Made by a program: the position numbers and the translations under genes. Shown here in pieces: positions 761 to 34,896 of a stretch of 41,236 nucleotides of DNA. The DNA comes from an uncultured Gammaproteobacteria bacterium (lineage in GTDB: Bacteria > Patescibacteriota > Microgenomatia > Levybacterales > GWA1-39-11). The notes beneath the pieces were generated by a model. It was not told the DNA's origin. It was given only the letters and a program-made list of their open reading frames with translations, and made no database searches. The stretch is from assembly GCA_964537315.1 (NCBI GenBank), contig CAZIAP010000002.1, positions 1 through 41,236 of the forward strand, read 5' to 3'. The stretch's first letter is position 1. Each line of letters starts with the position of its first letter.

Positions 761-1627
761 TTAGAGTTCCTGGAGGATTGTACTCTCACCTTTTTTATTG
801 TCTTTGATATATTGTAAATATCTCTCTGTCGAAGACAGACGTTTGTGTCCGAGTACTTTTGAAAGAAATATAATTGATACTCCTTGCTTTAAATGGTGTG
901 AAACAAATGTGTGTCTTAGATCATTTATTTTCGCGTTCTCTATACCTGCTTTTCTAAAGTGTCTCTCAACAGCATCACGAATATTTCTAACCAAAAAAGG
1001 CTTACCTGTTTTAGTTACAAATAAATGGTCATCTTCTGTTTTTGTTCTAACTTCTATATATCGTTTTAATGCCTCTTTTGCTCTTTTATTTAAAGGAACC
1101 TCTCTTGCTTCATGTCCTTCGTGTGCGCGAATATATAGCGAGTTGTCTTTTACATCTTCTAAACGCAAATTTGCCAGCTCCCCTATACGGATGCCTGTTT
1201 GCAGTAAAATTTCAATAATCGCATAGATTCTTGGATCAGAAGATGCTGTGTCTCTAAGAGCTCGATATTCCAGCGGACTTAACACCCTAGGAGGATTTAG
1301 CTCATATTTTGGATGCTGAACCATGAGAGATGGATCATCGGTAATATACTCACTAATTTTTAAAAAACGATAAAATGTGCGGGTGGAGTTAAGCTTTCTG
1401 GAAAGTGACTTTGGGGTATACCCTGTATCCTGCAGTTTAGATAAAAATGCTTGGATATCCTGGTCATTGACCTCATGGATATGCTGCTTTTCTAGTTCTT
1501 CCAGAAATGAAACAAGTTGGTCAATGTCTTTTCCATATGCTAATATGGTTGCAGATGCCTTGTTTTTTCCTTTTAGGTAGTCCTGAAACTTACCATGAGC
1601 GTCACGAAGTTTTACATTATTTGCCAT
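761..1627 (-). CDS. XerC/XerD-family tyrosine recombinase
   Basis: SAM-like N-domain (RKLNSTRTFYRFL) plus TGIRIGEL, DLRHTF, LGH and TERY motifs. Start placed at 1627 because a TTGACA-17-TATTAT promoter lies just upstream. Confidence 0.9.
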   Translation of the reverse strand: MANNVKLRDAHGKFQDYLKGKNKASATILAYGKDIDQLVSFLEELEKQHIHEVNDQDIQAFLSKLQDTGYTPKSLSRKLNSTRTFYRFLKISEYITDDPSLMVQHPKYELNPPRVLSPLEYRALRDTASSDPRIYAIIEILLQTGIRIGELANLRLEDVKDNSLYIRAHEGHEAREVPLNKRAKEALKRYIEVRTKTEDDHLFVTKTGKPFLVRNIRDAVERHFRKAGIENAKINDLRHTFVSHHLKQGVSIIFLSKVLGHKRLSSTERYLQYIKDNKKGESTILQEL

Positions 1628-1636
1628 AGACAAACC

Positions 1637-1666
1637 TATAATATCAGCGAGTCCTAAATTTGTCAA
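1637..1666. promoter_or_regulatory. Overlapping divergent sigma70 promoters between xer and divIC
   Basis: Minus strand: TTGACA (1661-1666), 17 bp, TATTAT (1638-1643). Plus strand: TATAAT (1637-1642) with no clear -35. Confidence 0.6.
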
Positions 1667-1667
1667 C

Positions 1668-2009
1668 ATGAAATCTAAAAAAGTAGCAGTTATTATTTTT
1701 GTTCTTATATCAATCTTTGTGCTTCGAAATAGTATCACTTCTATCACTAGTCTTCTCCAGAATGAAGGTGCTGTTCAAGATCTCCAACAAGAGCTTAGCG
1801 AAAAAAAGAAAGAGCATATATTTTTAACTCAGCGACTTTCACAAGTTAAAACTGATGAATTTGTTGAACGAGAAGCCAGAGAAAAACTCGGGATGGTCCA
1901 GGAGAATGAACATCCTGTATTTGTTATCCCTCCATCAGAAAAAAATAACGAAAATAAAGTGGATAAGAAAGAAAACTGGGAAAAGTGGAAAGAAATCTTT
2001 AGATTTTAG
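1668..2009 (+). CDS. divIC: Septum formation initiator, FtsB/DivIC family
   Basis: N-terminal TM helix, coiled coil, and EFVEREAREKLGMV motif. Confidence 0.8.
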   Translation: MKSKKVAVIIFVLISIFVLRNSITSITSLLQNEGAVQDLQQELSEKKKEHIFLTQRLSQVKTDEFVEREAREKLGMVQENEHPVFVIPPSEKNNENKVDKKENWEKWKEIFRF

Positions 2010-2919: not shown

Positions 2920-3309
2920 TTACTCTAACTCTTTCGCCAAAACTTCAGCTTCAAAGAAGTTGGGGTCAATAAACAAAGCTTTATCAATAAATTCTCTAGC
3001 TTTATTATTCTCACTTAAACGAGCAGCATAGACGGCCGCTTCGTAATAAGCTGCAGGGAACTGTGGATACTTAGCGATTACTGACTCCCAGTACGACAAG
3101 CTTTCTTGATATTCCTGCTGAACCTGCATGTTTGCACGGTAATCCTTAAATGTCTCATAAAATAGCATTCCTAATGTTGCGGTAAAAGAAACCATAAATA
3201 CGGTAATAAATATACCTAAGCTTTGCATAAATTGAGGTCTAGTAAAACGAGTTTGGATTCTTTGCGGTAATACAGCGGCAAATATGCGGGAATAAGTACG
3301 TTTGGGCAT
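2920..3309 (-). CDS. Hypothetical membrane-anchored protein with C-terminal TPR-like helices
   Basis: One TM segment, then YPQFPAAYYEAA..KALFIDP. Start at 3309 is supported by TTGACA(3344-3339)-17-TATAAT(3321-3316)-6-ATG. Confidence 0.7.
   Translation of the reverse strand: MPKRTYSRIFAAVLPQRIQTRFTRPQFMQSLGIFITVFMVSFTATLGMLFYETFKDYRANMQVQQEYQESLSYWESVIAKYPQFPAAYYEAAVYAARLSENNKAREFIDKALFIDPNFFEAEVLAKELE
3263..3294 (+). repeat. 32-bp tripartite repeat, copy 1 (TGCGGTAATAC AGCGGCAAATA TGCGGGAATA)
   Basis: Aligns with copies at 5494, 6145 and 6853. Lies inside codons 6-16 of the 2920..3309 gene. Confidence 0.85.
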
Positions 3310-3315
3310 ACCTGC

Positions 3316-3376
3316 ATTATATATCGTGTCTAATATTCTGTCAAAATTTGACAAAAGACTCATTTCAACGTATAAC
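3316..3376. promoter_or_regulatory. Back-to-back sigma70 promoters
   Basis: Plus: TTGACA 3348-3353, 17 bp, TATAAC 3371-3376 (glmS leader). Minus: TTGACA 3344-3339, 17 bp, TATAAT 3321-3316. The two -35 boxes form the palindrome TGTCAA-AAT-TTGACA. Confidence 0.8.
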
Positions 3377-3409
3377 TGTATGAAAGTATAGGTTGCTCAT
3401 TGTTTAACA

Positions 3410-3590
3410 GGCGTGTAGTCCCGACGTTACGTCGGGAAACGAGGAGAAGGGTCCGAAGTAACATCGGACAATCGGACGTCCGAAGTAACATCGGACAGTA
3501 TTTGCGGAAACCTTCAGGGTGTAGTACCATCCTAAAATATTCTGACAAAGCAAAATCGCAAGGTTTTGAATAAAACAGTATATGCGTACT
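3410..3590 (+). ncRNA. glmS ribozyme/riboswitch, variant with two hairpin insertions
   Basis: Upstream of glmS. P1 3419-3437; ACGAGG 3439-3444; P2 GAAGG/CCTTC; ATCG 3471-3474; GCGG 3504-3507; P3 AGGGTG/CATCCT; P3.1 AGTAC/GTACT(3586-3590); GACAAAG; P4.1 CAAAATC-GCAA-GGTTTTG with a GNRA loop. Confidence 0.85.
3451..3497 (+). repeat. Two identical palindromic 20-mers GTCCGAAGTAACATCGGACA (3451-3470 and 3478-3497)
   Basis: Exact direct repeat with a 27-bp period; each copy folds as GTCCGA-7-TCGGAC. Confidence 0.95.
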
Positions 3591-3734
3591 CTCCTATACT
3601 TCTTAAGTTTTTATTCGTTGAGCATTATAGTTTAAGACGTTCTAAGGGTTTAGAACAGGCGGCGAACGTGACTACTCACGAATCGTGGATCTTTACTGTA
3701 ACCGTTTAACTTATATTTACCAATTAAATCTAAT

Positions 3735-5492
3735 ATGTGCGGAATATTCGGTTATTTAGGTGATCAAACCAATGCGGGAAACTTAGTCCTTGATGGGCTA
3801 AAATCACTGGAATACAGGGGTTACGACTCTTGGGGAGTTGTAGTAAAGCAGCAAAACCGAAAACTACACATTGAGAAACATGTAGGCAAAATTGGTGATG
3901 CTACTCTTCCTTTACTTAAATCTTCTTCAGGAATTGGCCATACTCGATGGGCAACTCACGGCGGAGTTACAGAATCGAATTCTCATCCTCATCTGGACTG
4001 CAACCGTGAAATCATTATTGTTCACAATGGAATCATAGAAAATTATGCGGAACTAAAACAGAAACTACAGAGTAAGCATAGATATCTTTCAGAAACAGAC
4101 TCTGAAGTCTTTGCACACTTAGTCGAAGAAAAAATTATCAATGGAATGGATCTTCCACAAGCTGTTCTGGATACATTTACCCAAACTAAGGGATTGAGCG
4201 CAATTATTGTCTACCAGCCGAATACTGATAAATTTGTTGCTATCAAGAATGGGTCTCCACTTGTTTTCGGTACAAAAGATCAAGAGTTTTTCCTTGCGTC
4301 TGATAGTGCGGCATTAACTCCACATACCAACAAAGTCCACTTTCTTGAGGATAATGAACTACTTACTATATCTCGAAGTGGTTACCAGGTATATGACTTA
4401 AAACTCAACCCCAAAACTATTTCATTCATCACCTTGGAGTACTCATCTACTGATATAAACCTCGGTAAATACCCGCATTTCATGATGAAAGAAATACACG
4501 AACAGCCGTTTATTCTACGTAAGATAGTCCAAGAGCAGGAATCTAATATACAAAAGGCAGCTACTGTCATACAAAAGGCATATGGTACTTATTTCCTAGG
4601 CTGTGGGACAGCATACTATGCCGGACTTGCTGGAACATATCTATTCTCTAAAATTGCTAAAAAACATGTGAACGCCAGTGTGGGGTCAGAATTCACCTAC
4701 CACAAGGATTTTTTGCAAGACAAAAGCCTTGTTGTAGCACTCTCACAAAGTGGAGAGACCATTGATATCATCTCAAGCATTAAAGATGCAAAAGAAAAAA
4801 AAGCCAAGATTATGGCGATAACCAATGTACTTGGTTCTACACTATACCGTATGGCAGACCACAGACTGCTTCTCACAGCAGGTCCTGAAAAAGGTGTCCT
4901 TGCAACTAAATCCTTTACCGCTAAGATCGCATACCTTTATCTGTTAGCACATGTACTAAACAAGAGCATTAAAACAGGTAAAACTAATATTCTAAAAGTT
5001 GCAGACGAGATAGAAAGACTGCTGACTAAAAAAGATTCTATTCATACACTCGCAAAGAAAGTTAAAAGTAGTCCACATATATTCATCTTAGGAAGAGGCA
5101 TGTCCTACCCCACTGCGCTTGAATCAGCATTAAAAATAAAAGAGGTGTCCTATATCCATGCAGAAGGATTCGCAGCTGGAGAATTGAAGCATGGTGTGAT
5201 TGCGCTTATTGAAAAAGGCACACCTGTAATAGTCTTTAATCCAGAAGATGAAACATACGAAGACACACTCAATGCTGCACATGAGGTAAAAGCACGAGGA
5301 GCGAATATTATCGGTATCTCGAGCAAAAAACACGAGGTATACGATACGTTTATTCCCATAAGCAATTGCGGAGATGCAACAATAATACCGCACGTTGTGG
5401 TAGCACAACTCCTGGGGTATTACCTAGCGATAGAGCTTGGTAATGATCCTGATAAGCCAAGAAATCTGGCAAAGAGTGTAACTGTAAAGTAG
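3735..5492 (+). CDS. glmS: Glutamine-fructose-6-phosphate aminotransferase
   Basis: MCGIFG N-terminal catalytic Cys; LEYRGYDS, GHTRWATHG, SQSGET and DKPRNLAKSVTV motifs. Confidence 0.98.
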   Translation: MCGIFGYLGDQTNAGNLVLDGLKSLEYRGYDSWGVVVKQQNRKLHIEKHVGKIGDATLPLLKSSSGIGHTRWATHGGVTESNSHPHLDCNREIIIVHNGIIENYAELKQKLQSKHRYLSETDSEVFAHLVEEKIINGMDLPQAVLDTFTQTKGLSAIIVYQPNTDKFVAIKNGSPLVFGTKDQEFFLASDSAALTPHTNKVHFLEDNELLTISRSGYQVYDLKLNPKTISFITLEYSSTDINLGKYPHFMMKEIHEQPFILRKIVQEQESNIQKAATVIQKAYGTYFLGCGTAYYAGLAGTYLFSKIAKKHVNASVGSEFTYHKDFLQDKSLVVALSQSGETIDIISSIKDAKEKKAKIMAITNVLGSTLYRMADHRLLLTAGPEKGVLATKSFTAKIAYLYLLAHVLNKSIKTGKTNILKVADEIERLLTKKDSIHTLAKKVKSSPHIFILGRGMSYPTALESALKIKEVSYIHAEGFAAGELKHGVIALIEKGTPVIVFNPEDETYEDTLNAAHEVKARGANIIGISSKKHEVYDTFIPISNCGDATIIPHVVVAQLLGYYLAIELGNDPDKPRNLAKSVTVK

Positions 5493-5493
5493 C

Positions 5494-5525
5494 TGCGGTA
5501 ATAAGTCGGTAATTATGCGGGAATA
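5494..5525 (+). repeat. 32-bp tripartite repeat, copy 2 (TGCGGTAATAA GTCGGTAATTA TGCGGGAATA)
   Basis: Begins 1 nt after the glmS stop codon. Confidence 0.9.
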
Positions 5526-5545
5526 GATTCTGATATACTATTTTC

Positions 5546-6163
5546 ATGGAAGAATTTATATCAGAAGAATTAGCTCGTTCTCCAGAACTGCCCCGTAAAG
5601 AATATAATAAAGTCCTTGTTGTCTTTGCAGGTGCTCCAGGCTGCGGTAAAACTACCTTAGCAACCATTCTCAATAAACACAGTAACGTTTTAATGTTGGA
5701 TGTAGACGCTGCTAAGAGGGAATTAAAAAGTAAAATGGAATTCGATAGTGACTCAGAGGCAATGCAAGCTGCTTACGCATATAATCACACCTTGGCCCGC
5801 AAAGCACTTGATGAAGGAAGATCAGTATCTTTAGTCGCAACCTATTCTAGACCTAGTTACCAAGAGGATGCGATGTCACTTGCATTATCTACCGAAACCC
5901 CCATGGTTGTATTTAATGTAGAAGGTTCTGAAGATAAAGTTAGAGAGACACTAAGAAAACGACAAGAAAATCCTAATGAGTTATCAGACGTAACTACGTA
6001 TGAACACCACTTGGAAGTAAAAAACAGACTTCAGAAATTTCAACATGATCAAGCAGTAGACATTCACACAGAAGGCAACACGCCACAAGAGACGTTTGCT
6101 AAAGTGCAATCTGCTCTACAACCGTATGAGCAAAAAGAATACTCTGCGGTAATAGCGCGTTAA
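5546..6163 (+). CDS. P-loop small-molecule kinase (AAA_33-like)
   Basis: Walker A GAPGCGKT, DVDAAKREL and lid LRKRQ. TATACT lies 6 nt before the ATG. Confidence 0.75.
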   Translation: MEEFISEELARSPELPRKEYNKVLVVFAGAPGCGKTTLATILNKHSNVLMLDVDAAKRELKSKMEFDSDSEAMQAAYAYNHTLARKALDEGRSVSLVATYSRPSYQEDAMSLALSTETPMVVFNVEGSEDKVRETLRKRQENPNELSDVTTYEHHLEVKNRLQKFQHDQAVDIHTEGNTPQETFAKVQSALQPYEQKEYSAVIAR

Positions 6164-6176
6164 ATATGCGGGAATT
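6145..6176 (+). repeat. 32-bp tripartite repeat, copy 3 (TGCGGTAATAG CGCGTTAAATA TGCGGGAATT)
   Basis: Overlaps the last codons and stop of the kinase gene. Confidence 0.9.
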
Positions 6177-6304
6177 CTCTTCTAATTCCAGCTCACCTTA
6201 TTTTTGATATAATCTTCTTACTTATACCCACTCTGCTTTAGTAGTAGATTTGTGTGTGGAAAGGCACTTTGAAATCCGTTGTGTGCATAAAGAAAGAGAA
6301 TTAA

Positions 6305-6781
6305 ATGCCTCAATATATGGACAGAAAAACATCTCTTACTTCAGATGAACTCCGAATAATTTATGTTCCACTTGGTCAAGTAGTCCGAGCGTGGCGACTG
6401 CACAGAAACCTATCATATGGAAAATTAGTGGAGAAGGGAGGTACACCTCTTTCAAAGGGTTATCTATCTCAACTGGAATGTAATAAGATTAGGCAACCAG
6501 GTAGTAAGCACATGGAAGCACTGACAAAGGGACTAGAGATTGATCCGACCATTTTACTTGCTCGGATTTTCCCTGGACAAGAACAATTTGTTGGTGAACT
6601 TGATAATAAAGAGTTGTATTTTTTAGAGCAAGTAAGTTACGAACTCACACTACTTCTCAACGATTTAGAGAGAATGCGAGTACAAGTACAAACAACCCTG
6701 CAAAAAGTTTATTACCTCCAGCAAATATATCTTGTTAATTTCACTTATCAAGACGATATTCTTGATTCGACAGAACAATAA
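6305..6781 (+). CDS. XRE/Cro-CI family helix-turn-helix regulator with C-terminal helical extension
   Basis: VRAWRLHRNLSYGKL..LSKGYLSQLECNKIRQPG..ALTKGL pattern. Confidence 0.75.
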   Translation: MPQYMDRKTSLTSDELRIIYVPLGQVVRAWRLHRNLSYGKLVEKGGTPLSKGYLSQLECNKIRQPGSKHMEALTKGLEIDPTILLARIFPGQEQFVGELDNKELYFLEQVSYELTLLLNDLERMRVQVQTTLQKVYYLQQIYLVNFTYQDDILDSTEQ

Positions 6782-6821
6782 CATAACTGTTAAGGTAAAC
6801 ATCTCACAACGGAAAATACAG

Positions 6822-6846
6822 GGGGAGGCGTTGTCCTCCCCTTCTT
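6822..6846 (+). terminator. Probable intrinsic terminator
   Basis: GGGGAGG-CGTTGT-CCTCCCC stem-loop followed by TTCTT, downstream of the HTH gene. Confidence 0.55.
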
Positions 6847-6852
6847 ATCTCT

Positions 6853-6884
6853 TGCGGTAATAGGTCGGGAATTGTGCGGGAATA
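6853..6884 (+). repeat. 32-bp tripartite repeat, copy 4 (TGCGGTAATAG GTCGGGAATTG TGCGGGAATA)
   Basis: Ends 1 nt before the valS stop codon. Confidence 0.9.
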
Positions 6885-6885
6885 G

Positions 6886-8985
6886 TTATCGAGATGGCCA
6901 TGGTGAAATAATTAACAACTCTTCTGTTAATCCGAGCTGTTTATTTATTTCCTCTGTTACAAATGGCATAAAAGGATGAAGAAGCGTTAACATCACTAAG
7001 TATAAGGAGCTCAAAACAGTGAATGAGTCTTCATCGATTCGATTTTTTACATCCTCAATATATATATCTGCAAATTCATGCCATGCAAAATCATATAAAT
7101 TTTGTGATGCATGATTAAAATCATACCTATCTAGTAGCCTAGTCACATTGTCAACTAACTCGCTCATCTTTTTAATCATTTCTTTATCATTTTTATGCTT
7201 TGCTACTTTTTCCAATTCAGTCAGTGAACTGTGAACTGTGAACTGTAAATCATCAGGTCTCTTCATTTCTATAAATCTCCCCATATTCCACAACTTGTTC
7301 GTAAATTTACGCATTGCATCAAGCTTGGGATAAGACAATGACTGATCATGTCCTAAAGCTGTACCATACACTAAAGCAAACCTAACAGCATCAGCGCCAT
7401 ACTGCTCGACTACCTCTAGTGGATTAACCACGTTGCCTTTGGATTTACTCATTTTCTTTCCTAACGGATCATTGACTAGCCCGTGCAGGACAATGTCTGA
7501 AAATGGCTTTTGACCTGTTACATAATAACCAAGCATCACCATACGTGATACCCAAGCACGTAATATGTCATAGCCTGTTTCCATCACGCTTGTCGGATAA
7601 AACTTTTCATAATCTCCATCTTGAGTAGTCTGCAAGGTAGCAAACGGCCACTGCCCAGATGAAAACCATGTATCAAAAGTGTCTGTGTCTTGTTCCCAAT
7701 CTCCCCCCTCCGGCACTTCTCCTTCAGTCACAACCCACTCACCAGTATGAACATTACGCCAAGCTGGGATACGAATTCCCCAGACAATTTGACGCGAAAT
7801 GTTCCAGTCTCTAAGATTTTCTAACCACTGACGATAATGAATCTCAAAGTTGGCAGGGTGAATTTTAATTTCTTTGTCCTCAACAGCTTTAAGCGCTTTT
7901 TCTGTTAATGGTTTTACTTTTACAAACCATTGTTCTCGAGGAAGAGGTTCAATAATATTTTTACACTTGTAACACAACCCTACACGGTGCGTATATTCCT
8001 CATCAATTTTCTCAATGAGACCCTTCGACTGCATTTCTTCTACAATTGCCTTTCTTGCCTGTTTTGCATAAAGACCAGCAAATTTACCAGCATGATCATT
8101 CATTTTTCCGTCATAGCCAATGACTTGCTTTAGGGGTAAATTATGTCGTTGTGATACCTCAAAATCATTAAAATCGTGTGCCGGGGTAATTTTAACTACT
8201 CCGGTTCCGAATTCAGGATCAACCATTTCATCACCTACAACTGTTATCTTTGCAGGTCCAAGAACAGTCTGAATATCAATCGTCTTTCCAATGTATTGAG
8301 TGTATCTTGGATCTTTTGGATTAACTGCCACAGCTGTATCGCCGAATTTTGTTTCGGGCCGAGTAGTTGCAAGGACTAATGGTCCGTATTTTATGTAATA
8401 TAGTGGGCTTCTTCTTTCTTCATATACTACCTCAAGGTCAGAAAATGAGGTACCATCAAACGTACAATAATTAACCAATCTTTCTGCTCTGTAAATAAGC
8501 CCATCATCATACATTTTTTTGAATGTTCTATGAACAACGCTTACTATTTCTTCATCTAATGTAAACTTTGCTCTACTCCAATCTAAGGAAAAACCCAATT
8601 TACGTAGCTGATCTTCCATTCCTCCTTTATTTTCTTGAACATAGTCCCATATCATCGTATACAATGTGTCTCTGTCATAATCAAAGCGGGTTTTTCCTTT
8701 TTCCTGGAGTTTTTTTTCAAAAACAAACTGAGTTTCAAACCCAGCATGATCTGCGCCTGGCACCCACAGAGCTGCATGTCCTTGCATCCTTTTAAAACGA
8801 ACTAAGATATCTTCTAGCACCATCATTGCATGTCCAAAATGAAGTGAGCCATTTGCATTTGGTGGGGGAAGAATTATAGTATAAGGTTTACCTTCAGGGT
8901 TTACTTCAGGTTTAAAATATTCATTTTTTACCCAAGAGTCATAAATTGATTTTTCAACCAATTTGTGGTCGTATGCTTTATCCAT
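6886..8985 (-). CDS. valS: Valine-tRNA ligase (short form)
   Basis: PPPNANGSLHFGH, DWNISRQIVWG, DTFDTWFSSG and KMSKS motifs. Confidence 0.97.
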   Translation of the reverse strand: MDKAYDHKLVEKSIYDSWVKNEYFKPEVNPEGKPYTIILPPPNANGSLHFGHAMMVLEDILVRFKRMQGHAALWVPGADHAGFETQFVFEKKLQEKGKTRFDYDRDTLYTMIWDYVQENKGGMEDQLRKLGFSLDWSRAKFTLDEEIVSVVHRTFKKMYDDGLIYRAERLVNYCTFDGTSFSDLEVVYEERRSPLYYIKYGPLVLATTRPETKFGDTAVAVNPKDPRYTQYIGKTIDIQTVLGPAKITVVGDEMVDPEFGTGVVKITPAHDFNDFEVSQRHNLPLKQVIGYDGKMNDHAGKFAGLYAKQARKAIVEEMQSKGLIEKIDEEYTHRVGLCYKCKNIIEPLPREQWFVKVKPLTEKALKAVEDKEIKIHPANFEIHYRQWLENLRDWNISRQIVWGIRIPAWRNVHTGEWVVTEGEVPEGGDWEQDTDTFDTWFSSGQWPFATLQTTQDGDYEKFYPTSVMETGYDILRAWVSRMVMLGYYVTGQKPFSDIVLHGLVNDPLGKKMSKSKGNVVNPLEVVEQYGADAVRFALVYGTALGHDQSLSYPKLDAMRKFTNKLWNMGRFIEMKRPDDLQFTVHSSLTELEKVAKHKNDKEMIKKMSELVDNVTRLLDRYDFNHASQNLYDFAWHEFADIYIEDVKNRIDEDSFTVLSSLYLVMLTLLHPFMPFVTEEINKQLGLTEELLIISPWPSR
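7224..7244. repeat. Heptamer tandem repeat (GTGAACT)x3 inside valS
   Basis: Three exact 7-bp units, 21 bp in total, so the reading frame is kept. Confidence 0.85.
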
Positions 8986-18145: not shown

Positions 18146-19403
18146 TTTTTACTCTGTACTTCACCCACAGCAATCCAAAAATAAAGGCTACTAAAACTAT
18201 GCCTTGCTGAAGCGTTATAAAAAAGTGATCTGCCATGCCGATAATTAGAATATTAACTGACAAGATTACCACCACCAATCCCATTCTGTGGTCAGTAGCT
18301 AATACACTTTTCATACGCCTTATAGATGCAATAATAAACCTTAAGAAAAGGAGAAACCCAACCATACCCACCTGCAATAATACAAGTAAATATATATTGT
18401 GAACCGGCTGCAGTAATAAAGGAGTAATTTTTGTTTGGTGCGGTAGTTGAAACGAAAAATAATTTAATATTCCTACTCCAAATACGGGCGACTGAGTAAT
18501 AATTGAGATAGCGATGCTAGCCAATTCTATACGAGCAAAAAAATCCGTACTTAGCGATGTGAGAGAAAACCGTTGGAATAATGCTCCTATTACGACAACG
18601 CTACTTGCTACCACAAAAAGCACGAAACGAGCAGGTATTAGTTTTTTATAACCTAGCCATAAAAGAGAAAGAACGAACACAACTATAGTCAACCTTGAGA
18701 AGGTAAGAAATAGACAAATGAAGGCAAGCGAGCTTGCTGCGCCAAACCAAATTTTCTTTAAACCCCAAGACAGGTTAAACATATAAACAACTAAAATTAA
18801 TACTGCGGAAAGCATAAAAAACGCCAAAACATTCGGATGAGGAAAACTCCCATATGCACGTAAGTACTCTTTTCCAAAGATACTGACTGTAGAAATACCA
18901 ACTGTCCCAATAGAAAAACTTCTCTCGCCAATTAAATAGAAAAGACCACCTACAGATGATTGATTAATAAATTGCCAAACTACCAACACACTTTCTAGTA
19001 ACACAGCAAAAGAAAGTACAAAGGCAATTTTAGAAAAATCCTGAGCCTTAAAAAGGCGAGAAATCACCCACCCCAAAAAAACCATCTCTGCTAACTTAAT
19101 CACACCATAAAATGCTGGTTGAGACTGTGGAGAAACTGCAACTGAGAGTGTAATTAGTAGTAATCCCAATACCAACCATTTTAAATTTTCTTTTTTAGCT
19201 GAGCTGATAGATCGAATAGCTGTAGGCAGAGTAATAAGAAAAAGTAGAAAAATAAGTAAATCTGAAAAGTATAAAGTAGGAGATAGATAGTCTACTCGAA
19301 TACCTGACACATATGAAAAATTAAGCCAAAAGTGTTTTCCAAGCTGAGAAATTGAAAAAAAAAGAATCAAGAAAAGAAGAATGCGCTGAGTAGTTTGTAT
19401 CAC
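18135..19403 (-). CDS. O-antigen ligase family membrane protein
   Basis: Multi-TM; RAYGSFPHPN, LTFSR and PVHNIYL motifs. Confidence 0.85.
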   Translation of the reverse strand: MIQTTQRILLFLILFFSISQLGKHFWLNFSYVSGIRVDYLSPTLYFSDLLIFLLFLITLPTAIRSISSAKKENLKWLVLGLLLITLSVAVSPQSQPAFYGVIKLAEMVFLGWVISRLFKAQDFSKIAFVLSFAVLLESVLVVWQFINQSSVGGLFYLIGERSFSIGTVGISTVSIFGKEYLRAYGSFPHPNVLAFFMLSAVLILVVYMFNLSWGLKKIWFGAASSLAFICLFLTFSRLTIVVFVLSLLWLGYKKLIPARFVLFVVASSVVVIGALFQRFSLTSLSTDFFARIELASIAISIITQSPVFGVGILNYFSFQLPHQTKITPLLLQPVHNIYLLVLLQVGMVGFLLFLRFIIASIRRMKSVLATDHRMGLVVVILSVNILIIGMADHFFITLQQGIVLVAFIFGLLWVKYRVKTTL

Positions 19404-19846
19404 TTCTTTTTGATAACTAAAATACGGTCTCTGTCTTCTCCGGATGACTCTGTAGTAACCTGATCATCTTCAACCAACTTCATATGAATAAGTCTTCTCT
19501 CCCAAGGTTTTAATCCACGAATAGTTTTATCAACACCGCTTGATATCACTTCTTCTTTTAATCTATCAGCTAGATCATTCAAGTATGATTCTCTTTCTTC
19601 TCTGTATCCACCGACTTCTACTATCACCCTTTTGTATTCTTCCTGTTTGGCTGCTACCATTTGTCCCAACAAATACTCCAATGAAGAAAGAGTATTTCCA
19701 TGCTTTCCAATTAACAAAGCGTTCTCGGGGGTATCTAATGAAACATGAAAGCCATTTTCGTCTTCAGATACTGAAACTTTTGCTTCCACTTCGATTTTGG
19801 CTAAAAGGTCTTCAGTTATTTGTTGTACAAGTGAGTTGTTATCCAT
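19400..19846 (-). CDS. jag: Jag/KhpB (EloR) KH-R3H RNA-binding protein
   Basis: LLIGKHG KH motif and ERRLIH R3H motif; lies downstream of yidC. Confidence 0.9.
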   Translation of the reverse strand: MDNNSLVQQITEDLLAKIEVEAKVSVSEDENGFHVSLDTPENALLIGKHGNTLSSLEYLLGQMVAAKQEEYKRVIVEVGGYREERESYLNDLADRLKEEVISSGVDKTIRGLKPWERRLIHMKLVEDDQVTTESSGEDRDRILVIKKK

Positions 19847-20633
19847 TTGATTTTATTTTTTGGATCCAAGGTGTTAGTCCTCCAAATCCTACTAGAATAT
19901 ATTGCTGAATTATACCAAAAACTGTGAAGGTATTCCAGTAAAGTGAGAGTCCAAAAGGAAGAGAGTACGAAAACCAACCGATCATAAGTGGAAAGATAAA
20001 CATAGATTGAGTCATAATAGCGCTTTGAAAATCATCTTTATTTTTCTTTACTTTTACAGCTGGCATCATCATTTTAGAAAGGAAAAATTGCAAAACACCA
20101 GTAACAATCGGAACCAGCACTATCAAAGGCATGGATTGAAACAATTGAGCGGGGCTTTGAGCTAATGAAATTCCAAAAAATGTTGGGTCCCAAGCACTAT
20201 TGATGTGAAGAAAAGAAAAATAAAGAGTATCATTGATGCTGGAAATTGCATCAGCAGAATTAAGTGAAACAACCTTGGTTAAACTATGATAAAGGGCAAT
20301 CATAATCGGAAACTGTATCAAAACGGGAACACATCCTGAAGCTGGATTAATATTATTTTCTTTGTATAACTTCATCATCTCCTGCTGTTGACGAGCTTTA
20401 TCATTTTTAAACTTATCCTTTATCTCACTCAACTTAGGTGCTACATCCTGCATTTTTTTCGATGAACGAATCTGAGCTGACATTAATGGATAAAGAAGTA
20501 GTCGAATAAAAGCAGTCATTAAAATTACGGCAAAACCGACAGCGTATGGGACCTGCAAGAAGACCATTAACTGATAAAATGCTACTAATATGTTCGTGAG
20601 AGGGACAGTAAATAATGAATTAAATAACTCCAT
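19839..20633 (-). CDS. yidC: Membrane protein insertase YidC/Oxa1
   Basis: RLLLYPL, NPASGCVP..QFP and GLSLYW motifs. Confidence 0.93.
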   Translation of the reverse strand: MELFNSLFTVPLTNILVAFYQLMVFLQVPYAVGFAVILMTAFIRLLLYPLMSAQIRSSKKMQDVAPKLSEIKDKFKNDKARQQQEMMKLYKENNINPASGCVPVLIQFPIMIALYHSLTKVVSLNSADAISSINDTLYFSFLHINSAWDPTFFGISLAQSPAQLFQSMPLIVLVPIVTGVLQFFLSKMMMPAVKVKKNKDDFQSAIMTQSMFIFPLMIGWFSYSLPFGLSLYWNTFTVFGIIQQYILVGFGGLTPWIQKIKSNG

Positions 20634-20640
20634 GACAATA

Positions 20641-20958
20641 TTATATTATACCTTCTTTTTTAAAGATTTGCTTAACCTCATCGTATATTTCATTTGCAGT
20701 GGCATCAGCACTTTTTTTTCGCAGGTAAAAAACGGTATCATAATCGACGTTTGTGTCTGAGACTATTTTCTCAAGCGTACGCTTGAATAAGCGCTTTAAT
20801 CGATTTCTATCAACTGCGTGAGCAGCTGTTTTTTTACTAACTACAATTCCATAACGGAAGTGCTCTGACTCTTGAAATCGGAGAACAAAGTAGGGTGATT
20901 GACTTGATTTGCGTGGAGCGCCTTCTTTAAAAGAATAACGATGCTGTTTACTGAGCAT
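20641..20958 (-). CDS. rnpA: Ribonuclease P protein component
   Basis: GIVVSKK..AVDRNRLKR RNR motif; position between rpmH and yidC. Confidence 0.92.
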   Translation of the reverse strand: MLSKQHRYSFKEGAPRKSSQSPYFVLRFQESEHFRYGIVVSKKTAAHAVDRNRLKRLFKRTLEKIVSDTNVDYDTVFYLRKKSADATANEIYDEVKQIFKKEGII

Positions 20959-33123: not shown

Positions 33124-34896
33124 ATGAACGATACGGATAAGATAAAACAAAAAATTGATATTGTAGATTTTATCGGTCGATTCGTGGATCTAAATAGAGC
33201 AGGCAGAAACTCCAAAGGACTGTGTCCGTTTCATAGTGAAAAATCCCCGTCATTTATGGTTTCAGGAGAAAGACAAATATGGCATTGTTTTGGCTGTCAA
33301 AAAGGAGGAGATATTTTTTCTTTTCTCATGGAATATGAAAAAATTGAGTTTGCTGAAAGCCTTAAAATACTGGCAAAAGAAGCTGGCGTTACTATAACTC
33401 AACCAATTTACCGCACTGAATCAGAACAAAAAAAGGAACTTCTATACGCTATTAACTCTGCAGCCGCCCAGTTTTATAATTATCTGCTCACCCAGCACGC
33501 TGTTGGCAAAAATGCACTTAAATACTTGACTGAAGACCGAGGAATTCCTTCAGGGTTAGTTGACAAGTTCCAGTTAGGGTACGCTCCTAATAAAACGACC
33601 GCACTAACTGAATATCTCGTAAAGAAACGCCAATATAAGCTAGAGGATATTCAAGCAGCTGGTCTTACGTCTGCAGGTAGAGGTAGACTATCAGATTTTT
33701 TTACCAACCGTGTCATTTTTCCGATTCATGACTTACGAGGAAATATCATCGCTTTTTCAGGAAGGGCTCTCGATAATGAGACAACGCCTAAATATATTAA
33801 TACCCGTGAGACGCTAATCTACAAAAAGAGTTCCTCATTGTTCGGAATATTTTTTGCAAAAGACGCAATGAGAAAAGAAAACAAGGTTTTAGTTGTTGAA
33901 GGAGAGTTTGATGTCATCAGCAGTATGAAAGAAGGAATATCTCATGCAGTCGCCCTAAAAGGCACCGCACTAACAGAAGAACAAATTAAGCTGCTTAAAA
34001 GATATGTTGCAAAAGTACTCTTCTGCTTCGATTCAGACGTGGCAGGGACAACTGCCCAGAAACGTTCTATCGCATTACTTGAAAAAGAAGGGCTGTCTGC
34101 TGCGGTAATAGTCCCTCCTGAAGGTAAAGATCCTGATGAGCTATTACGAGAAAACCCAACACTGTTTAAAAAAGCCCTTAAAAATGAAGTAAATGTTTAT
34201 GACTTTCTTATTGATTCTGCAGTAAAAGTGGTAGAAGTACAAACACCCGAAGGTAAAAGAAAGGTGCTTGATGAGACTCTGCCAATAATTTCTCAGATTG
34301 ATAACGAAGTTATCAAAGAACACTACTTAAAAAAACTGGCTCAAGCACTTGATACTTCTTATGAGTCAGTTCTGAGACAGAGTAATAAGAGTATCGATAA
34401 ACCCAAAATTATTCCAGTTAGTGTTAAAAGAGAGTCTAAAACCAGAGAAGAAATAACTGAGACATACTTTTTGTCTTTGGTTCTTCAGGCAAAAAACCCT
34501 TCTGACGAGATCTCCAGAATCAGCCCTATTTTAAATGAGATTGAACTTAGTACTCCATCTTTACAAAAACTTTGGAGTGAGATGCTTAATTTTTCTAAAA
34601 ACTCGACTTTTTCCCTAGATGAGTTTGCCAAACAAGTTCCGTCAGAACTTCTTGAAGCTTTTGACACCTGTTGCTTGTCACCCATACCTGAGTTTGAAGA
34701 CGCACAAACATTTGAGAAAGAACTTAGAAAAGTTGCTGTCGACACTGCAACTCTTGCAGTTCGCCATAAAATAAAAGCAGTAACACAGCGACTGCAGGAG
34801 TTGGAAAAAAATCCAAATGATGATACAATTGCATCACTGCAGACAGAATTTAGTAAATATACTCAACGTCTCGCGGCAATTAAACGAGCCTCTTGA
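33124..34896 (+). CDS. dnaG: DNA primase
   Basis: CPFHSEK zinc finger, PKYIN, VEGEFD, FDSD and KDPDE motifs. Confidence 0.97.

Follow-up and report, generated by a model that had tools for sequence, protein, structure and literature searches.

Short direct repeats placed head to tail at one-turn spacing are a familiar kind of binding site for oligomeric proteins. Iteron-type arrays with an 11-bp unit include parC of plasmid R1, which is bound by ParR, the three 11-bp repeats bound by RepB of pMV158, and the pho boxes of PhoB. The X1-X1.5-X2 sites of lambda Xis and the Cox boxes of P2 consist of three head-to-tail winged-helix sites within about 33 bp, which have a weak middle site and are bound cooperatively on one face of the DNA. 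Here, we describe an array of similar build in contig CAZIAP010000002.1 (positions 1 to 41,236; hereafter the window, i.e., the whole 41,236-bp stretch), where four co-oriented three-unit sites delimit gene-sized modules from upstream of glmS to the valS stop. A literature search brought up no previous account of the motif in a relevant context. The evidence is about evenly poised for our favoured explanation, in which the element would be a Microgenomates-wide protein-binding array on double-stranded DNA whose copies double as recombination joints.

The pattern TGCGGTAATANNNCGNNAANTNTGCGGGAAT matches the plus strand of the window at four positions, each without mismatch:

3263-3295, plus strand: site 1, TGCGGTAATAC AGCGGCAAATA TGCGGGAATAA, in codons 6-16 of a minus-strand TPR gene and upstream of the glmS ribozyme
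5494-5526, plus strand: site 2, beginning 1 nt past the glmS stop codon (5490-5492) and ending 5-6 nt ahead of the extended -10 element of a kinase gene
6145-6177, plus strand: site 3, with the kinase stop codon (6161-6163) inside it
6853-6884, plus strand: site 4, between the terminator of a helix-turn-helix (HTH) gene and the valS stop codon (6886-6888)

No further copy is present in the 41,236 bp with up to three mismatches, and 100 shuffles of the sequence yielded none. A looser score over 27 positions recovered the same four sites in the window and no others. The TGCGGKAAT 9-mer occurs nine times in the window (0.31 expected), with eight of the nine inside the four sites. The only unit outside them is an isolated TGCGGTAAT at 34101-34109, which lies within a gene. 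A previous sequence-only reading of this DNA had proposed four co-oriented sites at these positions, their placement relative to the glmS, kinase and valS stop codons and the lack of another full copy in the window, all of which the pattern scan and the coordinates bear out. The position of site 1 is matched in about 29 relatives, and we read it as the ancestral copy. Orthologous copies of site 2 are found in the loci L070-73, L007 and L064/L182, and units 1 and 2 of site 3 are identical to those of the kinase-distal site of L070.

An alignment of 51 sites from the window and its relatives defines the element as exactly three head-to-tail units of 9 + 2 bp (TGCGGKAAT-nn), which span 31 bp at 11-bp spacing and of which the middle one is degenerate (T[G/T]CGGKAAWT). 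Neither conserved flanks nor dyad symmetry are present in the 51 aligned sites, and there are no Rfam matches at the sites. Folding of either strand does not exceed that of shuffled sequences (z-scores from -0.46 to +1.19, both strands), and an attC-like or terminator hairpin is rejected on these grounds. Longer arrays exist, such as the six units before a Fic gene (L117). In L165 (1700-1860), about ten successive 11-bp units occupy the promoter region from which genes for a rubrerythrin and a DedA-family membrane protein diverge. In L108 (618-683) and L175 (257-322), two inverted units come 4 nt after a three-unit array and create a perfect 20-bp inverted repeat with it. Full arrays also occur as inverted pairs, around the DUF5654 gene in L194 and around the 5' part of an oxidoreductase gene in L012.

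This layout is that of several protomers of one protein which would read one face of the helix. The sequence-only reading had offered, as one of two interpretations, an operator for a protein binding at one-turn spacing, and the anatomy of three to about ten head-to-tail units at fixed, ancient positions fits that proposal. Like the iteron-type arrays, the element has head-to-tail units at one-turn spacing. Unlike them, it is chromosomal, conserved across a lineage, embedded in a coding region and located at breakpoints of gene content. The resemblance to the lambda Xis and P2 Cox sites lies in the three head-to-tail units, the length of about 33 bp and the weak middle. However, those sites belong to an att arm that adjoins a core crossover site and an integrase gene, neither of which was found here. 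As in one-turn operators of the OmpR/PhoB type, the head-to-tail 11-bp units lie near extended -10 elements, at a spacing that is not fixed. The MraZ operator, which is located upstream of mraZ/dcw, also comprises three direct repeats, with a period of 10 bp as compared to 11 bp in the arrays described here. No mraZ gene is present in the window or in any of the loci.

We scanned public collections of species-representative genomes and metagenomes with a pattern of 22 positions. The species-representative genomes contain 67 loci, compared to about four expected from their size alone by our own estimate, and by our count about 40 of the 67 belong to Microgenomates/Patescibacteria according to gene context. 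Metagenomes add about 55 sites of the type found in the Candidate Phyla Radiation (CPR), again by our count. With regard to number and gene position in related genomes, on which the sequence-only reading had expected its interpretation to turn, genomes of the Microgenomates/Patescibacteria type carry only one or two strict copies each, and more than 90% of the sites are located at gene boundaries. Of the 84 distinct sites compared by position, 45 fall between genes, 29 are in the 5' portion of genes of one TPR/membrane-protein family and three overlap a 3' end; the other seven were scored as internal, at least three of them within spurious open reading frames (ORFs) only. The commonest location is that of site 1, namely the first codons of a membrane/TPR gene that stands tail to tail with the L25 gene. 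This gene reads the motif in two frames (..FPHxxRxITA.. in 23 loci and ..YSR..LPQ.. in six, including the window), and the synonymous positions of the motif are invariant. Because two frames are used and synonymous positions do not vary, the constraint acts on the DNA and not on the peptide. A coding-sequence motif is rejected by the same use of two frames and by the intergenic position of most copies. Taken together, the comparison presents the array as an element that is lineage-wide in the Microgenomates and kept at low copy number.

Two observations accompany the scan. Many third-party-annotation metagenome-assembled genomes titled 'uncultured Gammaproteobacteria' or 'Pseudomonadales' resemble Microgenomates in their L25-TPR-glmS-valS synteny and low GC content (L002, L004, L006-L009, L013, L014, L017, L020, L024, L026, L030, L031, L038, L043-L045, L048-L050), and their organism labels look wrong. 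Moreover, two virus families have arrays of the same 9-mer (GCGGTAA.., three to six head-to-tail copies) shortly before terS. Those of the L069 family (L069:2540-2625; also L106, L118, L164, L188, L191 and L192) directly follow the gene of an ArpU-like late activator (phrog_248) and lie 16 nt before a TGnTAAAAT extended -10 element upstream of terS-terL-portal. In the L068 family (L068/L093/L123/L125), they lie 3 nt before terS. Long 11-bp tandem repeats were also matched in Bacteroidales, Sorangium and others. We take the viral arrays and these repeats to be iterons of probably independent origin, matched because the search was very large.

The relation of the array to gene content becomes apparent in the window's own clade, where the block Xer-DivIC-tRNA-L25-TPR-site-glmS...valS is syntenic in Levybacteria-like relatives. 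The following layouts were found:

L064/L182: glmS, site, valS
L070-L073 (kinase 91% identical): glmS, site, kinase gene, site, valS
Window: layout of L070-L073 plus the HTH gene and one extra site
L007 and a contig co-occurring in the window's own metagenome: glmS, site, gene for an unrelated 171-aa membrane protein, site, valS
L038, L083 and L112: TPR gene, site, valS, without glmS
L004: L25 gene, site, valS, without glmS
Six other relatives: unrelated gene of 610-625 aa between glmS and valS, no second site

The loci of the cassette series always have N genes and N+1 sites. Between the window and L070, the insertion or deletion of the HTH gene is bounded inside unit 3, and the single L070 site combines units 1-2 of site 3 with the unit-3 side of site 4. 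Genes are bracketed by arrays in the same manner elsewhere, including galE (L034), a His-phosphatase gene before valS (L161), a 114-aa gene together with a BrnTA pair (L117), the gene of a 397-aa membrane protein (L149) and the complete BrnTA-DUF5654-Fic-ligase block (L201). At the ancestral site, the L25 side is constant while the right flank varies, with glmS in 14 cases, the valS stop in four, and a methyltransferase gene, a NUDIX gene and others besides. At unconstrained positions, sites are 0.62 identical within genomes as compared to 0.49 between genomes (permutation p = 0.0004), and the pairs around a single cassette reach 0.71-0.93. Since identity within genomes exceeds that between genomes, site copies arise by duplication or exchange sequence. 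No excision joints were seen among assembled contigs aligned to the region, which by their nature cannot show rare forms.

As judged from these comparisons, gene-sized modules evidently enter and leave at array joints in the clade of the window. The other interpretation in the sequence-only reading was a recombination site whose reuse stacked single-gene cassettes, as in an integron or a pdif array, and a comparison of the glmS-valS junction supports the pattern it predicted, given the single site without cassette in L064/L182 and the different cassettes in other relatives. The pattern of N genes and N+1 sites across relatives thus stands, while the Xer or integron mechanism attached to it is not supported, since the sites have no dyad and no fold. 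The arrays resemble those of integrons in their single-gene modules stacked in one place, in the N+1 co-oriented sites with ORFs abutting them, in the cargo of ORFans and toxin-antitoxin genes and in a content that varies among close relatives. They differ in that the site consists of three direct 9-mers instead of an imperfect palindrome, with no single-strand fold and no adjoining integrase. Furthermore, the cassettes carry their own promoters, one has a terminator, and the housekeeping genes glmS and valS are bracketed as well. No integron-type integrase is encoded beside the first site; the sole tyrosine recombinase is the Xer-like one, and four genes lie between it and the site. The arrays in L034, L117, L161 and L194 have no tyrosine recombinase gene nearby. 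A CRISPR repeat is likewise rejected, because the 'spacers' would be genes of 0.6-2.2 kb and because the middle units of sites 3 and 4, the pair around the most recent insertion, are not the same. In L050 (5840-6100), the intact glmS is followed by two more, decayed copies of its last ~13 codons (..KPRNLAKSVTVK*). These repeats resemble scars left by elements that inserted in the 3' end of glmS and carried a replacement for it, which would be a second, different kind of insertion trace at this locus.

The genes and signals around the four sites are as follows:

2920-3309, minus strand: TPR membrane-protein gene adjoining the L25 gene, which Pfam also identifies (Pfam TPR; family in 14 loci)
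3344-3316, minus strand: promoter of the TPR gene, TTGACA-17-TATAAT, 12/12 consensus matches, aimed at site 1
3399-3593, plus strand: glmS ribozyme (Rfam RF00234, 52.4 bits), part of module 1
3735-5492, plus strand: glmS (Pfam SIS + GATase), module 1, with sites 1 and 2 on either side
5531-5539, plus strand: extended -10 element of the kinase gene, TGATATACT, read by eye, with a like layout in L070, L026 and L037
5546-6163, plus strand: AAA_33 / zeta-toxin-like P-loop kinase (Pfam), module 2
6205-6213, plus strand: extended -10 element of the HTH gene, TGATATAAT, read by eye
6305-6781, plus strand: XRE-type HTH protein of 158 aa (weak PHROG regulator match), module 3
6820-6843, not stranded: bidirectional intrinsic terminator hairpin 3' of the HTH gene (sequence scan)
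6886-8985, minus strand: valS, convergent, the conserved right-hand anchor of the array (Pfam; synteny in 14 loci)

Both cassette proteins are ORFans. The kinase has a single relative, which is 91% identical, and the close relative L070 is without the HTH gene. The TPR gene likely starts with a leaderless ATG at 3309, which is in frame, and its N-terminus TYSRIFAAVLPQ is encoded by site 1. Because the minus-strand promoter points at this ATG, site 1 would occupy codons 6-16 of the gene. The kinase ATG at 5546 is probably leaderless as well.

If the array is a protein-binding array, three protomers of one protein would bind each copy on one face of the helix, with the middle unit contributing a weaker contact. 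On the TPR gene, whose consensus promoter places the array at about +15 to +46, the bound protein would act as an operator or roadblock and hinder elongation. At the kinase gene, the array would cover the -35 region of the extended -10 promoter (5531-5539), and at the HTH gene, it would sit one to two turns further upstream of the extended -10 element. Other copies overlap or closely precede promoters with a -10 element and without a -35 element, or fill the whole gap between two genes. In hairpin-free convergent pairs, where the array takes up the whole gap, the bound protein could stop read-through. As the distance between array and -10 element is not fixed, occlusion or a roadblock is favoured over classical activation.

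A candidate for the binding protein came from the sites themselves. All-against-all clustering of neighbouring ORFs revealed no recurring small DNA-binding gene by the sites. In two of the loci selected by the site, however, the array is found at the start of a gene encoding a Fic protein with a C-terminal winged helix. This protein combines the HPFxDGNGR motif with a winged helix-turn-helix (wHTH) tail and is strongly conserved in Microgenomates, where the 120 best matches among 4,966 homologues found are 61-100% identical. Its gene forms a fixed operon with a 61-aa ORF and an archaeal-type ATP-dependent DNA ligase gene, usually with a divergent gene for a DUF5654 membrane peptide. Upstream of Fic (L194, L196-L204) is a variable slot that holds ParE or BrnTA toxin genes, a sortase gene or a Mur ligase gene. 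L180 has the Fic gene in inverted orientation with respect to the ligase gene, with an array at the junction.

We then picked eight Fic lineages by protein similarity and without reference to the site. Full three-unit arrays are present at the Fic start in two of the eight, two-unit remnants overlapping the -10 element in three, and a single unit, together with two near-identical full arrays around the whole block, in one. Units were thus found at the Fic start in six of eight lineages, and shuffled sequence gave no matches. Because most lineages have units at this position, the Fic promoter qualifies as a second conserved home of the motif, which also fits the proposal of a protein binding at one-turn spacing. 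The C-terminal domain of the Fic protein aligns to CbFic2 (8cil) and CccR (7xux). CccR represses its own promoter through its C-terminal wHTH domain (PMC9755527). The Microgenomates protein shares this domain and has units on its promoter in most lineages, the arrangement that would be expected of an autoregulator. On this basis, Fic-wHTH is the most likely candidate reader of the array. A difference to CccR is that the arrays are also found at unrelated genes and bracketing cassettes, a situation not described for CccR. The HTH protein encoded at 6305, which the sequence-only reading had put forward as a binder, and the kinase are both rejected as general binders because they are ORFans and because L070 retains sites without the HTH gene.

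Several observations weigh against a protein-binding array with Fic-wHTH as its reader and with joints made by exchange between copies. Two of the eight Fic lineages have no array at all, and the recognition helix of the Fic wHTH does not co-vary with unit variants. Unlike in classical activator geometry, the distance from array to -10 element is not fixed. No plus-strand gene is available for regulation by site 4 or by the single L064 site. Moreover, the 31-bp homology explains gene loss, but it explains gain poorly. Array-to-array exchange would account for the gene losses, the hybrid site of L070 and the homogenized copies. Gene gain would need array-carrying donors, with re-insertion of circles that consist of a gene plus an array, or else a dedicated enzyme. 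Either short-homology recombination between protein-bound repeats or a further recombinase would fit.

The step to a dedicated enzyme leads to an explanation that we regard as unlikely yet worth serious attention, in which the array is the site-specific recombination site of a CPR-specific cassette system, i.e., an attachment site or the part of it bound by a recombinase or directionality factor. Circular gene-plus-site modules would then be integrated and excised by a recombinase encoded elsewhere, on an integron-like platform of a new kind. The N+1 co-oriented sites around N genes, with at least eight different cassettes, are what such a system would leave behind, as are ORFs that begin or end 0-4 nt from the sites at both ends, near-identical flanking sites and a cargo of ORFans, toxin-antitoxin pairs and a zeta-like kinase. 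A crossover in unit 3 fits the L070 hybrid site, and inverted pairs and the Fic inversion occur at sites. The 33-bp layout of three sites with a weak middle furthermore recalls the X1-X1.5-X2 filament of lambda Xis. However, the site has neither the dyad and central region that tyrosine or serine recombinases need nor a folded form, and no recombinase is consistently nearby. The most frequent copy has an ancient, fixed place within a coding region, and assembled contigs, in which rare forms cannot show, contain no excision joints. A broader form of this idea is an undescribed Microgenomates cassette system that uses the triple array in place of a palindromic att site. A lineage-specific machinery, perhaps organized by the Fic protein with its ligase operon, would excise and insert single genes, housekeeping genes included, at the arrays, which would also gate transcription of the genes they bracket. 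We consider this form improbable, if conceivable.

Alternatively, the array might be purely the operator of a small regulon, with no role in recombination and with an incidental cassette look. This is, in our estimation, rather less probable still. Conserved positions across lineages at the TM gene, glmS, valS, Fic, dnaG and a gene for a 165-aa membrane protein are consistent with an operator, as are the proximity to extended -10 promoters and the ten-unit array in the divergent promoter region of L165. An operator would, on the other hand, not be expected at terminal positions without a downstream gene (site 4, L064 and L004), nor does it explain why insertions and deletions stop exactly in arrays, why copies within a genome evolve in concert or why synteny breaks at the ancestral site.

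A centromere-like or chromosome-organizing role, as played by parC and tubC, the type II/III plasmid centromeres with head-to-tail repeats of 11-12 bp, is very unlikely. The 11-bp head-to-tail units, the few copies per genome and the tolerance inside a coding region would agree with it, and so would the location near the origin in L027 and within 14 kb of rnpA-yidC-jag in the window. Against this stand the lack of a ParR/TubR-type partner gene among those seen, the copies at the Fic promoter and at scattered gene junctions, and the cassettes, which would be left unexplained. The rnpA-yidC-jag(KhpB) cluster, found at 19400-20958 in the window and within 14 kb of the sites, usually adjoins dnaA/oriC; neither dnaA nor a DnaA-box cluster is present within the 41-kb window. 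In L027 (7417-7497), four DnaA boxes, three of them perfect copies of TTATCCACA, lie within 80 bp directly downstream of dnaA. This cluster is likely the oriC of a Patescibacteria genome, 3.9 kb from a tsaD-site-valS junction. A DnaA box as the identity of the array unit is rejected, since the L027 oriC has the canonical TTATCCACA and the array unit agrees with it at only five of nine positions.

It is highly doubtful that the array is a dif-like Xer site with insertions of the type known from integrative mobile elements exploiting Xer (IMEX) or from pdif modules, catalysed by the neighbouring Xer-like recombinase:

761-1747, minus strand: Xer-like tyrosine recombinase (Pfam), 1.5 kb from site 1, syntenic only in Levybacteria-like clades

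In this clade, the locus resembles such systems in being a conserved, low-copy chromosomal site whose duplicates flank inserted genes, with an Xer-like gene 1.5 kb away in a synteny conserved in two clades, and the reverse strand of site 2 reads CGCATAA-N8-TTAT. However, the arms are direct and not inverted, and there is no central region of 6-8 bp. The resemblance of CATAA..TTAT to a XerC arm, to which the sequence-only reading had drawn attention, is absent from sites 1, 3 and 4, and the units are direct repeats. Its Xer or integron mechanism is not supported either, given the lack of inverted arms, central region and fold and a synteny of the Xer-like gene that is limited to two clades; the arrays in L034, L117, L161 and L194 have no Xer gene nearby. 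The site in L027, 3.9 kb from the cluster of four DnaA boxes, is near the origin and not at a replication terminus, the place of dif. Matches to canonical dif or parS do not exceed chance in the window, which also contains no GC-skew switch. The recombinase itself has NDLRH where enzymes of the XerC/XerD type have HxLRH, which puts Asn in place of the first catalytic His in each of the eight copies compared (window, L007, L017, L020, L030, L032, L038 and L050), and its gene is always followed by that of a conserved protein of 175-193 aa without Pfam match.

An RNA-level element or hairpin-free terminator in transcripts is scarcely credible, as sites that directly follow stop codons and fill hairpin-free convergent gaps (L064, L070 and L004) are offset by an orientation that is not fixed relative to transcription (the TM gene and L038 against the kinase gene) and by the lack of a fold or Rfam match.

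The tiny genomes of CPR bacteria contain few recognized regulators or mobile elements, and little is understood of their gene gain and loss. The array is a low-copy DNA element that a whole lineage has kept, even within a coding region, and that marks exact breakpoints of gene content, and it provides a concrete sequence and a candidate protein for bench testing. It belongs with known kinds of elements, namely operator or iteron arrays and cassette hotspots, and there is a small though real chance that it represents a recombination system of a truly new kind. As operators, the arrays would constitute the first cross-lineage regulon of the Microgenomates and give the conserved Fic-wHTH protein a role. 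If they are recombination sites, they would reveal a new route to cassette arrays without palindromic att sites.

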